Assembly (NCBI GenBank): GCA_024653775.1
Contig: JANLHZ010000268.1
Span: 3,555 to 67,554 of the forward strand
DNA length: 64,000 bases
Reading direction: 5' to 3'
Source of the DNA: Planctomycetota bacterium
Lineage (GTDB): Bacteria > Planctomycetota > UBA8742 > JACQVU01 > JANLHZ01
In this document: positions 1,365 to 60,374 of the stretch, in pieces
How positions within the stretch are numbered: position 1 is the stretch's first letter
Layout: every line of letters starts with the position of its first letter
The notes under the pieces: generated by a model
Told to the model about the DNA's origin: nothing
Database searches by the model: none
The model's input: only the letters and a program-made list of their open reading frames with translations
Position numbers and translations under genes: made by a program

Positions 1365-1412
1365 GGGAATTAGGAATTAGGAATTAGGAATTGAGAATTG
1401 AGAATTAGAAAA
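1365..1412. repeat. heptanucleotide tandem repeat (GGAATTA/GAGAATT units, about 6 copies) immediately after stop codon
   Basis: The sequence ggaattaggaattaggaattaggaattgagaattgagaattagaaaat is read directly. Period is 7. Confidence 0.8.
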
Positions 1413-1444
1413 TCTCCCTCGCCTTCCAGGAAAGGGCTGGTTCG

Positions 1445-2962
1445 ATGGCGATTTTGAAACGTACATGCCAAGAAAGCTTTACTGCCGCGGCGCTCGGGCT
1501 ACGCCATCGCGAGGATGCCTCCGCGGAACCTGGCGTCCTCGGCGGATCGATTCTGCTGCGTGCACTCTCCAGCACAGCGGGAAGAATCGTTACGACAACC
1601 GTCTTCGCAGGGATCGTCGTCACGGGCGCGTGGAAACTGTTCGTTTTCGCTGGTCCGGAGATCGCCTTCGCAGCGGCGGGAATAGCCGTTGCGTCATTTT
1701 TCGCGTGGAGACGTTCGCCGCAGTTTTCGATTCTCGCGCTGACGGCCTCGATGGTCTGCGCGCCGAGGATGATCGAAATCCGCGTCCTAGGCGGGTGGAT
1801 TCACGCGGAGGAACTGATGCTGCTCGGGATGATTTTCGCTTTCGCGCTTTCTAAAGGGAGCAGGGAGCAGGTAGCAGGGAATGGCAAAATCCGTCTCCAT
1901 CCTGAAGCTGGCGAGGGAAAGACGAGTGAACAAAAATTCAATCCGTGGATTGCGGGTGCGATTTTCCTCGCGAGCCTCGCGCTTTCGCTTTCGACCATCT
2001 CGGGCGCGTTTTTCGGAACCATCGCAAGTCCGTCGAACGCGTTCGTGACGCTCGCCCGAATCGTGGAACTGATGATAATCCTTCTCCTCGCGGCGAGCAT
2101 TCCGTGGACATCGCGGAACCTCACGAGGCTGCGAGCCGCGTTCGTCATCTTCGCGCTCATTATGGCGGCGTACGGAATACTCTGTTACGTCGTCCGGACC
2201 TCCCGCGAAGAAACCGTCTCCCGTATTTTTCTGGAGCCGCCTTTCGATCACGAATCGAATCACTTCGCCGGGCTTTTCGCGCTCGCGATCGTTTGCGTTC
2301 TGTTTTCGAAAAACGAGCCATGGCGCGGATTCGCGGCGCGAATTCCCGCAGCCATGGTTCTTGGCTTCGCGCTCTGGCTGTGCGCGTCCAGGGGAGCGCT
2401 GTTTGCGATCTCTGTCACCATATTTCTGCTCGGACTGACGCGAGTGGCGCGAAAGTCGATCCTGGCCGCGGCCGGAATCGTCCTGATCGCGGCGCTTGCG
2501 GTACTGGCGCTGCTCCAGACGTCGATCTCTTTCCCGAGACCGCTGTCGGCGGACATCGAAGCGACAGAGTACCAGAAAGCGCGAGAGGAAATTGGCTACG
2601 TCGCCTACCCAGGCTGGCATCGGAACCGTCTGACCGTGTGGGAGGAACTCGGAAGAGAATTCGAGATCGCGCCCGTGATCGGGGTCGGCGTCGGCGCGCG
2701 GGAAAAGGTCCACTATGAAAACTTCTTCCTTTGGTCGCTGTCGGAGCTTGGAATCGTCGGCTCCGCGCTGCTCCTTGGTGCGCTCGCGTGCTTGCTCCGC
2801 GGTCTCGGTGCGAACGGCGGCCCGCCCCGTGGGATGATCCTGCTCGCGCTGCTTCTCGGAATCACGAGCGTGAGCTTCCTAATTTTCCGCGAAGGCGGCC
2901 CGCTGCTCGTTTTGATCGCCGCGACATCGGGTGCTGGCAACACGTCAGAGAAAACTCTCTGA
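1445..2962 (+). CDS. polytopic membrane protein, O-antigen ligase (Wzy_C)-like family
   Basis: About 10 predicted TM helices. Loop motif WRGFAARIP...CASRGALFAISVTIFLLGL resembles the Wzy_C ligase/polymerase domain. Start codon uncertain. Confidence 0.5.
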   Translation: MAILKRTCQESFTAAALGLRHREDASAEPGVLGGSILLRALSSTAGRIVTTTVFAGIVVTGAWKLFVFAGPEIAFAAAGIAVASFFAWRRSPQFSILALTASMVCAPRMIEIRVLGGWIHAEELMLLGMIFAFALSKGSREQVAGNGKIRLHPEAGEGKTSEQKFNPWIAGAIFLASLALSLSTISGAFFGTIASPSNAFVTLARIVELMIILLLAASIPWTSRNLTRLRAAFVIFALIMAAYGILCYVVRTSREETVSRIFLEPPFDHESNHFAGLFALAIVCVLFSKNEPWRGFAARIPAAMVLGFALWLCASRGALFAISVTIFLLGLTRVARKSILAAAGIVLIAALAVLALLQTSISFPRPLSADIEATEYQKAREEIGYVAYPGWHRNRLTVWEELGREFEIAPVIGVGVGAREKVHYENFFLWSLSELGIVGSALLLGALACLLRGLGANGGPPRGMILLALLLGITSVSFLIFREGGPLLVLIAATSGAGNTSEKTL

Positions 2963-3106
2963 GGCGCTTTTTACTTCGCAGTTGTCCCTGTCTGGAAGGT
3001 CGTTTCGTTCGCTAAGGACGCGCGTCCTAAAGCGGGGAACCCAAATTTCGCGGCTGAAAATCGTCGTCAAAAACGTGTCCGACACAAATATATTTGAAAA
3101 TCTGAC

Positions 3107-3145
3107 CTTTATCTATCCAATTCCTTATGAATTGGATAGATAAAA
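3107..3145. repeat. AT-rich 16-bp inverted repeat (hairpin) between convergent genes
   Basis: tttatctatccaatt / aattggatagataaa arms with a 7-nt loop. No clean U-tract, so terminator assignment is weak. Confidence 0.4.
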
Positions 3146-3191
3146 ACTAAATTACATAATAGATACATATTTTAAATATATATCTGTATGG

Positions 3192-58302: not shown

Positions 58303-59591
58303 GGGTCGCGAACTCCGAGCAGCCATTTCCACGCGGGCACAAGCGCGATTTCATTCCTTCGTCCCTCCTGATCGAACGTGATTATAGTGCCTTTGTCGAT
58401 TTCGAGGGTTTTCATTGCCTCCCTGATTCCTCGAAGTTCTCGATTCTCGTTCCGTGAATCGAGTTCATAGCAAACCTGGATCGCCTCCGACGGCCTGTGT
58501 GAATCCATGACGATGAAATCGCATTCGAAATTTCCTTTGAAATAGAAGAAGTCTCTTTTCTTTCTAAACAGATCGATAGCGATCATGTTCTCGAGAAGCG
58601 ACCCACGGTTCTCTGAAAACGCTCTTCCGAGCAAGCTGAATCCGTTGTCGATCAGATAAACTTTTTTGGGGTTCATCGTTCTCTTACGAACGGAATAGGA
58701 AAACTTTTCTATGCCTATTATGAAAAATGCCTCCATCAGAAATCTGAAATAGTTCGCGATGGTTCTCTTGCTTGCGTTCGCGCCAGAAGCGACAAGGTGC
58801 TTTTCGAATGCGGAGATAGAAAAGACTCTCCCGTAGTCCTCTATCATTCGCGCCATCAGCGGCTCGAATGTTTCCTTAGCTCTGATGGAATGTCTTTCCA
58901 GTATGTCACTATAGAAAATGGTCTTGTAATAGGATTGAAGGATTGAACGCTTATTCATTTCCGTATCCTGATGCAGCGTTTCAGGATAACCTCCGCATCG
59001 CAGGTAGTTTTCGAACGCGCCGACGATATTCCCGCGATATGCTGTGTTCAAGTCCACCGCATCGAATCCGATTCCATTAAATTTCAGGCACTCATCGAAT
59101 GAAAAAGGCAGAATTCTTTCTTCGATATACCTGCCTCGAAGTTCGTGCGCGATCTCTCCCGCAAGCAGTGATGAGTTGCTGCCAGATACCACGATCCGAA
59201 ATGCGCCAGAATTATGAAGCGTTCGCACGAGACGACTCCACTGCGCAACGTGCTGCACCTCGTCGAGAAACAAGAAAGCAGGCTTCTTTCCGGTAAGCTG
59301 AACGCAGGCTTCGAAAATACACTCGATATCCGCGGGAACGAAGCCGGAGAGTCTGAAGTCCTCGAAATCCAGGAAAAGAATGTCAGACTTGTCGTAAGCC
59401 CGCGACCACATGAGTTCACCTATTTTCTGGAATAGATAATAAGTCTTGCCTGCTCTACGGGGACCAACGATTGCGAGCACGTTCCTTAACTTCTCAATGT
59501 CGATTTCCGGAACCGTTCTCCTCGTTAGATCGGGCAGTTTCTTCTCTCGCAGCCAATCGGCGACGATCGGCAAGGCCTGCTTTTTTTCCAT
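58299..59591 (-). CDS. AAA+ ATPase with DUF4143 C-terminal domain
   Basis: Walker A VGPRRAGKTY. Walker B FLFLDEVQ. Length and organisation match the AAA_14/DUF4143 family. Confidence 0.75.
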   Translation of the reverse strand: MEKKQALPIVADWLREKKLPDLTRRTVPEIDIEKLRNVLAIVGPRRAGKTYYLFQKIGELMWSRAYDKSDILFLDFEDFRLSGFVPADIECIFEACVQLTGKKPAFLFLDEVQHVAQWSRLVRTLHNSGAFRIVVSGSNSSLLAGEIAHELRGRYIEERILPFSFDECLKFNGIGFDAVDLNTAYRGNIVGAFENYLRCGGYPETLHQDTEMNKRSILQSYYKTIFYSDILERHSIRAKETFEPLMARMIEDYGRVFSISAFEKHLVASGANASKRTIANYFRFLMEAFFIIGIEKFSYSVRKRTMNPKKVYLIDNGFSLLGRAFSENRGSLLENMIAIDLFRKKRDFFYFKGNFECDFIVMDSHRPSEAIQVCYELDSRNENRELRGIREAMKTLEIDKGTIITFDQEGRRNEIALVPAWKWLLGVRDP

Positions 59592-59859
59592 CGAATTTCA
59601 CCTTACGAATGCATCCGGCTCATGTAGAACTGTTTTTTAAAGTAAACAAATTATATTAAAGTTGTTTACTTAAGCAAACAACTTTTTATCGCTACACAAT
59701 TTAAGAAGATCGTCATCCGCCAGAGACGCAGAGTTATGCGGATGTATCTTTTGCCCTTTTCCTGAAACGCGTATACAGTTAACTGTTTCGCCGACTATTT
59801 GTTTCGTCGACGATTGAACTTGGCGCCGACATCTGGCATAGAAAAGGATTGCAGGCAAA

Positions 59860-60276
59860 TTGATCGCGGATTTCGTAGACTTGCTTTATAGGCTCATATT
59901 CGACGCCTGCTCGTACCTCTGCCACCAGATGCCTGAGCGGAGCTTGATCTTCGGCGTCCGCCTCCCGCTTTGTTTCAGATGCACCGGAATCTACGCAGGT
60001 TTGGCGCTCGGCCTCATTTACCTTTATTTTCGCTACAGGAAGACCGTCACGAAGTACCCTTCAAGAAGATACGTCCTGTTGATGGTTTTCTGCGTCGTAC
60101 TCCTTCCACTGGACATATTTCCGGTGCTGATCGACCTCATTCCTGACGAATCGACGGTATTTTCGAACATAAGAAGGGCCGTGACTGGACTTTTCTTCGG
60201 CGCCGGGCTATCACTATTTGTTTATCCGTCCCTCGTGGTTTTATCGCTCCGTAAGGGAGAACTTCTAAATAATTAA
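59860..60276 (+). CDS. DUF2085 membrane protein
   Basis: CHQMPERSLIFGVRLPLCFRCTGIY motif. Confidence 0.65.
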   Translation: MIADFVDLLYRLIFDACSYLCHQMPERSLIFGVRLPLCFRCTGIYAGLALGLIYLYFRYRKTVTKYPSRRYVLLMVFCVVLLPLDIFPVLIDLIPDESTVFSNIRRAVTGLFFGAGLSLFVYPSLVVLSLRKGELLNN

Positions 60277-60297
60277 TAATTAACAATTAAAAATTAA
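60268..60297. repeat. heptanucleotide tandem repeat (AATTAAT/AATTAAC) overlapping the DUF2085 stop
   Basis: aataattaataattaacaattaaaaatta. Confidence 0.7.
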
Positions 60298-60342
60298 GGG
60301 CGGGTGATAGTTTTGTACTTAATGGCATATCTTTCTGTGCTA

Positions 60343-60374
60343 AATTGTTAATTATTAACTATTAATTATTAATT
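60343..60374. repeat. heptanucleotide tandem repeat (TTAATTA/TTAACTA) immediately upstream of cyclase start
   Basis: aaattgttaattattaactattaattattaat. Confidence 0.7.

Follow-up and report, generated by a model that had tools for sequence, protein, structure and literature searches.

Why does a stretch of bacterial chromosome carry tandem repeats of 7 nucleotides (nt) between its genes, and do these repeats act on the genes beside them? We addressed both questions in a 64-kb window, the whole stretch of DNA analysed (64,000 nt of contig JANLHZ010000268.1), from a metagenome-assembled genome (MAG) of the Planctomycetota (protein accessions MCR4317868.1 and MCR4317879.1). Heptanucleotide arrays have been known from bacteria since about 1990. 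We identify those in the window, with high confidence, as simple-sequence-repeat (SSR) arrays of the heptanucleotide 'long SSR' type, similar to the short tandemly repeated repetitive (STRR) elements of cyanobacteria. The full reading that we favour, in which STRR-type arrays are born by slippage and act in cis on the transcript, we consider probable, if narrowly so; cis action at gene boundaries is the part that we hold with moderate to low confidence.

The arrays far exceed chance. Two independent detections, Tandem Repeats Finder and our own lag-autocorrelation scan, were set against a gene map of the window built from open reading frames (ORFs), GC content at third codon positions (GC3) and Pfam. 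Tandem Repeats Finder recovered period-7 arrays at all 11 sites listed in an initial annotation of the window (3.1–6.1 copies, 80–91% matches), and the scan found 14 lag-7 arrays, where 30 dinucleotide-preserving shuffles gave an expectation of 0.73 and never more than 3. The strict heptameric periodicity claimed there also held, with only lag 7 and its multiples exceeding chance among lags that are not multiples of 3. Lags 14 and 21 were elevated as multiples of 7; lags 4, 5, 8, 10, 11 and 13 remained at chance level; and lags 3, 6, 9, 15 and 18 were elevated, as coding DNA predicts. Lowering the score threshold from 9 to 7 added just three arrays, one of them intragenic. Arrays extend over about 25–45 nt (3–6 units), and their length peaks at about 4–5 units without geometric decay. 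Several sites, those starting at 1855, 10349, 15548, 36602 and 45989, were absent from the earlier list, as were two properties described below: the inverted pairing of half the arrays and their non-random orientation to flanking genes (Table 1).

Table 1 Heptamer arrays of the window and array hairpins at other loci (positions of the latter are those of each locus).
Feature	Position	Strand	Detection and unit	Setting
(GGAATTA) x6.1	1365..1412	+	Tandem Repeats Finder 1366-1408	1 nt past TGA of TPR gene (41-1363); 32 nt short of Wzy_C ATG (1445)
AGGGAGC x3.7	1855..1880	+	GC-rich	Sole intragenic array, in Wzy_C ORF
ATTTTTG heptamer / 14-mer	10349..10383	-	Tandem Repeats Finder; sense CAAAAAT-type units	gcvT-gcvH spacer; 13 nt before gcvH ATG (10335), directly 5' of GGAGGA Shine-Dalgarno
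(ATTCGTA) x4.4	11641..11678	.	Tandem Repeats Finder 11643-11673	Divergent gcvT/GT2 spacer, flush with neither gene; 100 nt to gcvT (start 11540), 57 nt to GT2 (start 11736)
(CAAAAAT) x4.1	12911..12940	+	Tandem Repeats Finder 12911-12939	38 nt past GT2 stop, 56 nt before IMPase-family start
CCGACCA x2.7, weak	15548..15566	+		69 nt past transglutaminase-like gene stop
Inverted pair 1, start-proximal arm, AAT-N-ATT family	24328..24358	-	Tandem Repeats Finder 24329-24358, AATAATT x4.3; sense TTAATTA-type units	9 nt before PilM-like ATG (24318), without Shine-Dalgarno
Inverted pair 1, stop-proximal arm	24700..24724	-	Tandem Repeats Finder 24701-24722, TAATTAT x3.1	Overlaps FHA gene stop codon (24718-24720)
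(TCAGTAG) x3.6	31128..31152	-	Tandem Repeats Finder; sense CTGACTA-type units	3 nt before Ser/Thr kinase ATG (31124), 30 nt past M16 peptidase stop
Seven in-phase heptamers, ACTACTG / CCACTAT types	32504..32553	.	By eye; Tandem Repeats Finder 32512-32544, CCACTAT x4.7	Divergent M16 / secretin spacer, ~55 nt from either start
CAAAAAT x2 in sense, weak two-unit array	36602..36615	-		~17-30 nt upstream of acs ATG (36585)
Inverted pair 2, stop-proximal arm, AATAATT/AACAATT	37617..37650	+	Tandem Repeats Finder 37616-37649, ATAATTA x4.9; also perfect 14-mer x2.3	Begins at base after metallophosphoesterase (36891-37616) TGA
Inverted pair 2, start-proximal arm, AATTATT/AACTATT	37795..37825	+	Tandem Repeats Finder 37796-37822, TATTAAT x3.9	5 nt before GTG of GT4 glycosyltransferase (37831), without Shine-Dalgarno
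AATAACT x2.3, weak	45989..46004	+		Mid 299-nt spacer upstream of AbiJ-like gene
Inverted pair 3, stop-proximal arm	60268..60297	+	Tandem Repeats Finder, AATAATT x4.3	Encodes final two codons and TAA stop (60274-60276) of DUF2085 gene
Inverted pair 3, start-proximal arm	60343..60374	+	Tandem Repeats Finder, AATTATT x4.6	13 nt before CHASE2-cyclase ATG (60388), GGAG in the gap
Hairpins at L030	11093-11168, 11569-11634
Hairpin at L033	10935-10993
Hairpins at L037	11131-11214, 18660-18722

The arrays are intergenic. Thirteen of the 14 lie between genes, though intergenic DNA makes up 14% of the window, and about 10 of some 25 sizeable intergenic regions hold them. Their exclusion from genes follows from the stop codons that most units contain and from the period, 7 not being a multiple of 3. 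The intragenic AGGGAGC array leaves the single frame and GC3 phase of its Wzy_C ORF unbroken and is probably unrelated to the intergenic class. Most units are indeed AT-rich relative to the 56% GC background, although the description of the genome as GC-rich applies only moderately (window ~56% GC, GC3 ~75% in native genes). Units had also been said to differ between sites; there are several, but they group into a few families rather than being all distinct. Those of CAAAAAT type, for instance, recur with one and the same orientation: arrays 10349, 12911 and 36602 have them in sense before gcvH, the IMPase-family gene and acs, respectively.

Many arrays touch a codon boundary. For about 8 of 12, the nearest start or stop codon is only a few nt away, as reported earlier, but arrays 11641, 12911 and 32504 stand 38–100 nt off. 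On the stop side, arrays 1365, 24700, 37617 and 60268 start 1 nt after the stop codon, are flush with it or overlap it. The first of these is purine-rich on its sense strand and has TAG in all three frames. On the start side, arrays 31128, 37795, 24328, 60343 and 10349 end 3–13 nt before a start codon. In front of three of the genes concerned (kinase, GT4 and PilM-like) the array leaves no space for a Shine-Dalgarno sequence; one is present at gcvH and at the CHASE2 gene. The idea that arrays replace the Shine-Dalgarno sequence does not discriminate, with only about a third of window genes having such a motif. Array 12911 has more C than G on its sense strand and is pyrimidine-poor in structure. 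The kinase leader array 31128 is unstructured alone (z = 0.05). Both ends of array 32504–32553, across the M16 peptidase gene, are complementary to it, and the duplex between 32504–32553 and 31126–31153 reaches -33 kcal/mol, compared with -10.8 ± 3 for shuffled controls.

The sharpest arrangement involves six arrays with the near-palindromic unit AAT-N-ATT, which form three convergent inverted pairs (arm complementarity 82–95%). The arms pair as 24326–24350 with 24701–24725 (pair 1, 92% across 350 nt), 37617–37649 with 37793–37825 (pair 2, 82% across 143 nt) and 60268–60298 with 60340–60370 (pair 3, 87–95% across 41–54 nt). Each pair brackets the whole spacer between two co-directional genes (399, 214 and 111 nt, respectively): in gene direction, the first arm lies on or overlaps the upstream stop codon and the second stands just short of the next start codon. 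Such flush placement of all six arms is not expected from random placement within their own spacers (Fisher p = 6e-5). In the printed sequence, the central base of the unit is A in the 12 complete left-arm units and T in 11 complete right-arm units. Arm–arm RNA duplexes have energies of -14 to -28 kcal/mol, compared with about -4 for shuffled arms, and the pair 3 region folds at -27.1 kcal/mol, only modestly better than shuffles (z = -2.5). The arms alone are conserved; on alignment, the interiors of the three bracketed spacers (45, 144 and 341 nt) are mutually unrelated. No Rfam families or tRNAs were found in the bracketed spacers.

The same design occurs in other genomes. We scanned 80 gcvT loci (1.35 Mb) for heptamer arrays, which proved sporadic and concentrated in few genomes, where they form gene-end hairpins. 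Both gaps of the gcvT–gcvH–gcvP operon are occupied in this way in a Pyrinomonadaceae MAG of the Acidobacteriota (locus L030). Here, a CAGTGGT array directly after the gcvT stop is joined by a 26-nt loop to its inverted counterpart, which stands 9 nt before the gcvH ATG; a GAAAATG array after the gcvH stop is separated by 16 nt from its inverted counterpart, which stands 8 nt before the gcvP ATG (-54.7 and -27.7 kcal/mol, z = -10 and -5.4). A TTGCGAG/CTCGCAA hairpin lies directly after the gcvT stop in a Thermoguttaceae MAG (L037), and a Thermomicrobiales MAG (L033) has two convergent stop codons with a TCAGGAG/CTCCTAA hairpin spanning the gap from one to the other. Hairpin folds at these three loci are very stable, with z of -4.4 to -10. 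A Microcoleus locus (L035) carries an AACAGTC array. Across the window and the gcvT loci, an inverted partner lies no more than 400 nt away for 17 of 48 lag-7 arrays; the corresponding counts at control lags were 0 of 9 (lag 5), 2 of 24 (lag 8), 2 of 20 (lag 11) and 5 of 14 (lag 10).

A second regularity concerns the strand. The unit GGAATTA is a rotation of TTAGGAA, and TTAGGAG and TCAGGAG recur in L033 and L037, so we scanned metagenomes for TTAGGAR x3, a unit that resembles a stop codon followed by a Shine-Dalgarno sequence. The scan returned more than 120 stretches, and 80 loci were analysed (450 kb, GC 0.34–0.66). They contain 218 lag-7 arrays, compared with 2–34 at other lags, and many of the contigs hold several unit families plus inverted pairs; none of 76 TTAGGAR arrays lies within an ORF. 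We then pooled the window with 165 loci (L001–L165; 166 sequences) and considered ORFs of at least 120 amino acids that passed a coding-strand filter (RNY), for whose calibration validated genes of the window were used. Arrays starting 0–20 nt past a stop codon are purine-rich rather than pyrimidine-rich on the sense strand by 56:5, a ratio based on crude gene calls and on metagenome contigs some of which possibly come from related organisms. The ratio is 26:1 at 0–5 nt and 30:4 at 6–20 nt (11:0 and 13:2 without TTAGGAR arrays), and the bias is absent at 21–60 nt (15:18, or 9:10 without TTAGGAR arrays). Upstream of start codons there is just a weak opposite trend. The window conforms to the rule: all four of its stop-adjacent arrays are purine-rich on the sense strand, 'purine-rich' meaning only 4 of 7 bases for the AAT-N-ATT unit. 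An artefact of ORF calling was considered as the source of the bias and rejected, as the bias persists with array-independent stops and strengthens under the RNY filter. Because it is both specific to the sense strand and dependent on distance from the stop, strand-neutral slippage is hard put to explain it, and the rule suggests a link either with the transcript or with the termination of translation.

We propose that the arrays originate as a by-product of replication, a source already suggested in the initial annotation and a plausible one; replication slippage or template switching would most likely generate the genome-specific repeat class. We infer this origin, as we do that the arrays are transcribed and influence expression. 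After a stop codon, a purine-rich arm could supply further stop codons in all three frames and, where the RNA is read-through or polycistronic, would pair with the arm before the next start codon to give an intercistronic stem, which could stabilize or process the message; alternatively, the stem might tie downstream initiation to upstream termination, with the terminating ribosome melting the first arm. Single pyrimidine- or A-rich arrays just 5' of start codons would instead provide unstructured leaders without a Shine-Dalgarno sequence.

A bolder version of this proposal would make the heptamer arrays a cross-phylum cis element that couples downstream translation to upstream termination. 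In such an element, a purine-rich arm within ~20 nt after the stop, with three-frame stops and sometimes a Shine-Dalgarno-like sequence, would pair with its complement just before the next start codon, in a stem that joins stop and start or is melted by the terminating ribosome, in hosts sparing in Shine-Dalgarno use. The data are compatible with this version because the 56:5 bias is lost beyond 20 nt and the stop–hairpin–start design occurs in four phyla; as a general claim we find it doubtful.

Several observations weigh against cis action on the transcript. Any function of the arrays is something that we infer entirely, and the present data leave the period of 7 unexplained. The enrichment at gene boundaries that had been expected for the arrays at large stood for the six AAT-N-ATT arms only; the remaining eight arrays are single and not significantly flush, compared with random placement in their own intergenic regions (p = 0.71). 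The spacer of pair 2, at 37 kb, folds no better than shuffles (z = -1.1). By eye, the top strand carries an AAC-N-ATT variant about eight times, spread over both arms, as against one compensated C–G pair, and at all three loci the variants produce C·A mismatches in top-strand RNA and G·U pairs in bottom-strand RNA. When duplexes were compared by strand (regions 24322–24358/24700–24728, 37614–37650/37793–37828 and 60265–60298/60340–60376), the bottom strand gave -22.0, -27.9 and -20.7 kcal/mol and the top strand -14.3, -14.7 and -16.1 kcal/mol at 24, 37 and 60 kb, respectively. The bottom-strand duplex is thus stronger at all three loci, by 5–13 kcal/mol, with genes on the minus strand at 24 kb and on the plus strand at 37 and 60 kb. 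The uncompensated variants therefore leave the sense-strand RNA stems weak at the latter two. The asymmetry speaks against a sense-strand stem being under strict selection in this genome, and common descent of the three pairs or a strand-specific mutational or DNA-level effect could be its source; a replication-strand effect and an antisense or single-stranded-DNA function are other possible causes. The 45–340-nt loops also carry promoter-like sequences (by eye, with weak matches in a scan), which, if real, mean that the two arms may not share a transcript. Finally, over 21.7 kb a distant relative that shares the kinase–FHA–PilM cluster (L083, GC 64%) has zero heptamer arrays, so that these genes can evidently do without them, and arrays are a trait of certain genomes, not of particular operons. 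Loci L081 and L082 (Acs, 72% identity) likewise contained no arrays, nor did the other two of the PilM-like set L083–L085 (28–34% identity). Close relatives of the host were not found: exact-protein look-ups matched no record; among 5.8 billion proteins, Acs, GcvT and the PilM-like protein had 100% matches only to the MAG's own proteins, with best non-self matches of 72%, 49% and 34%, respectively; a GcvT scan of GTDB genomes gave identities of at most 48%; and no relative emerged when JGI metagenomes were scanned with the M16 peptidase. By protein similarity, the host lineage is deeply isolated within the collections searched.

The strongest rival is a neutral origin, in which high-rate slippage, purging from genes, a deletion bias that trims the DNA between array and gene, and fold-back template switching would together leave mutational debris at gene ends. 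Site-to-site variation of the units, the sporadic phylogenetic distribution, the array-free syntenic cluster of the distant relative, the uncompensated variants in the arms and the eight arrays that are not flush with gene ends all fit debris, as do the published Xanthomonas and Nostoc arrays, for which no regulatory role was found and whose length varies between close species. Mutation that is neutral with respect to strand is, however, an unlikely source of the distance-dependent 56:5 sense bias, and neither the clustering of lengths at ~4–5 units without geometric decay nor the codon-flush position of six paired arms in spacers of up to 399 nt (p = 6e-5) is what debris would lead one to expect. 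We regard a purely neutral origin as possible, though on the unlikely side. An action at the DNA level, with the arrays serving as AT-rich melting, bending or protein-binding segments, UP-like elements, insulators or promoter spacers open to phase variation, appears quite improbable. It would suit the AT-rich units within a 56% GC genome, and -10/-35-like sequences do lie between the paired arms; promoter-like matches number 16 against 4.7 expected in 22–40 kb, and several overlap arrays. The G·U/C·A asymmetry moreover tracks the contig strand rather than the gene strand, as a replication-strand or single-stranded-DNA effect would. Yet the orientation rule across loci is bound to the sense strand and to stop distance, the hairpins of other phyla are intra-operon with 8–26-nt loops too small for a promoter, and the neighbouring genes are varied ordinary housekeeping genes, not typical contingency loci. 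The UP-element and phase-variable spacing roles raised in the initial annotation fare no better, as nothing places an array between promoter hexamers.

The AAT-N-ATT pairs might alternatively be small non-autonomous mobile elements, akin to miniature inverted-repeat transposable elements (MITEs) or to REPINs, that inserted between close genes with heptamer arrays as terminal inverted repeats. The three loci do have near-identical arms, with TAAATAATTAATAATTAACAATT at one end and AATTATTAACTATTAATTATT at the other, the variants share strand polarity at all three, and arms flush with both genes would fit insertion into a very short spacer. But the unrelated interiors of different length, the lack of a visible target-site duplication at the ends and of a transposase or RAYT gene among the window ORFs, and the other unit families and single arrays that such elements would leave unaccounted for make a mobile origin very improbable indeed. 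A role as intrinsic terminators, also raised earlier, is not supported: the arrays are AT-rich, the loops of the pairs measure 45–340 nt, there is no U-tract, and a terminator scan gave no match at arrays. Canonical terminator-like sites are in fact depleted in 22–40 kb (6 against 21 expected from shuffles), where none lies at a gene end or coincides with an array, and the organism may not rely on classical hairpin and U-tract terminators. Two further identities were tried and rejected. Integron attC sites are excluded by arm ends that do not match the RYYYAAC/GTTRRRY core sites and by ordinary chromosomal flanking genes, and the resemblance to Fur-box-like sites reflects just generic AT-richness.

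Other repeats and gene islands share the window. A 25-nt inverted repeat (45922–45946 and 48211–48235, 96% complementary, 2,264 nt apart) has one arm upstream of an AbiJ-like gene (46145–47026, low GC3) and the other in the 3' end of an unknown gene (47040–48287); the region so flanked may be a mobile defence cassette. Nearby, a transglutaminase-like gene is followed by a 64-codon C-terminal remnant of an AMP-binding/acetyl-CoA-synthetase-type gene (44999–45190). A 47-nt direct repeat from the end of the remnant (45132–45178 and 45865–45911, 79% identical) brackets a nucleotidyltransferase-like gene (45396–45845) and suggests an insertion with partial target duplication. Low-GC3 islands (6863–8973, 17087–18703, 21332–21598, 34195–34584, 46145–49806 and 58299–59591) carry genes of defence or toxin–antitoxin type (AAA_21/AbiEii-like with DUF4276, a Phd/YefM-like antitoxin, HipA_2 with DUF3037, DUF433, DUF4258, AbiJ, AAA_15/AAA_21, and AAA_14 with DUF4143). 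These islands look horizontally acquired, and the heptamer arrays are not concentrated around them. An AT-rich near-palindrome (15688–15796; 54-nt arms, 74% complementary, 1 nt apart) lies within the 532-nt spacer between the transglutaminase-like and metallo-beta-lactamase genes. Two tandem repeats are not of period 7: three copies of the 9-mer TAATCTGCG at 41446–41472, ending 6 nt before the M3 peptidase start, and two copies of a 16-mer at 59784–59815, upstream of the DUF2085 gene. Perfect 13–14-bp AT-rich hairpins occur in the spacers at 2963–3191 (after Wzy_C) and 54485–54790 (upstream of holA).

Together with the Acidobacteriota, Thermomicrobiales, Thermoguttaceae and metagenome loci, the window extends this repeat class far beyond the textbook cyanobacterial case. 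Two regularities, the codon-flush pairs that bracket spacers and the stop-distance-dependent purine bias, make the question of function testable in an array-rich species that can be cultivated. If it is true that arrays couple or insulate the translation of neighbours, they would represent a general mechanism of operon expression; if not, they are a curiosity of how genomes mutate and are composed. The arrays are a real phenomenon and a widespread one, but an uncultured and isolated MAG alone makes the functional question no more tractable.

Among known systems, repetitive extragenic palindromic (REP) sequences, REPINs and the intercistronic hairpins that stabilize transcripts or are cut by RNase III resemble the window pairs as imperfect palindromes after stop codons or between cistrons, with possible roles in mRNA protection or processing. 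Members of a REP family share a conserved sequence, in many cases a GTAG tag, and are associated with a cognate RAYT transposase. The stems in the window consist instead of tandem heptamers whose sequence varies by site. The closer parallel is the cyanobacterial STRR, and the comparison made in the initial annotation was apt: the arrays resemble heptanucleotide long SSRs, including their hairpin-forming inverted pairs between genes. Canonical STRR units are CCCCAGT, TTGGTCA and CAACAGT. Like the window arrays, STRRs consist of tandem 7-nt units of several families in intergenic, sometimes inverted arrangements able to form hairpins, and those between hupS and hupL have been proposed to act in transcript stabilization, translational coupling or termination. 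They differ in host (a heterocystous cyanobacterium, compared with a Planctomycetota MAG), in unit (GGAATTA, ATTCGTA, CAAAAAT, AAT-N-ATT, TCAGTAG and CCACTAT in the window, mostly AT-rich) and in the long spacers, 45–340 nt, that the paired arms of the window enclose.

Heptanucleotide long SSRs have already been described in cyanobacteria, Xanthomonas, Burkholderia and Beggiatoaceae. The Xanthomonas GGGAATC and Nostoc GGGGAYT heptamers are G-rich, and no function was found for them (Rehm et al. 2015, PMC4692102); in Xanthomonas, they are ~90% intergenic, lie a mean of 28 nt from the upstream ORF end, are mostly transcribed and form 70–75 convergent pairs among ~185 sites (PMC4692102). They share with the window arrays a typical length of ~4 units, an intergenic position near the 3' end of the upstream ORF, convergent pairs and unremarkable flanking genes. 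Downstream of ORFs they occupy the coding strand and upstream of ORFs the non-coding one, an arrangement that the window shares, with its purine-sense placement after stops. Unlike them, the intergenic units of the window lack a GGG tract, and so G-quadruplex potential, and a single 64-kb window holds several unrelated families rather than one dominant unit. TAACTGA arrays of marine Beggiatoaceae, some Cyanobacteria and Bacteroidetes end ~1 nt short of start codons and usually lack a Shine-Dalgarno sequence; every frame contains stops, and some arrays run into the 3' end of the upstream ORF (MacGregor 2015, PMC4679880). Copy number (2–6), position a few nt 5' of starts, frequent lack of a Shine-Dalgarno sequence, three-frame stops and occasional overlap with the preceding ORF are common to these and the window arrays. 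No array of the TAACTGA unit itself occurs in the window, where AATAACT x2.3 (45989) and the ACTACTG units (32504) come nearest. The TAACTGA genome has one dominant unit and inverted pairs in 1 of 170 cases, whereas the window has several units and half of its arrays paired. Heptanucleotides are the commonest class in genomes rich in long SSRs of 5–11 nt, according to the account of Mrazek et al. 2007 given in PMC4679880, in which they are distributed sporadically and are proposed to arise when the polymerase slips over a 7-nt contact. As summarized there, long SSRs match the window in the dominance of period 7, in sporadic occurrence, in the proposed slippage origin and in the exclusion from genes of periods that are not multiples of 3; they appear as a statistical class without a placement rule, to which the window adds flush stop/start bracketing and a sense-strand purine bias. 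Published precedent thus exists for each qualitative feature of the window arrays. Novelty lies in the host lineage, in AT-rich units and in the long bracketed spacers, together with the generality and sharpness of the stop-codon strand rule in the pooled analysis.

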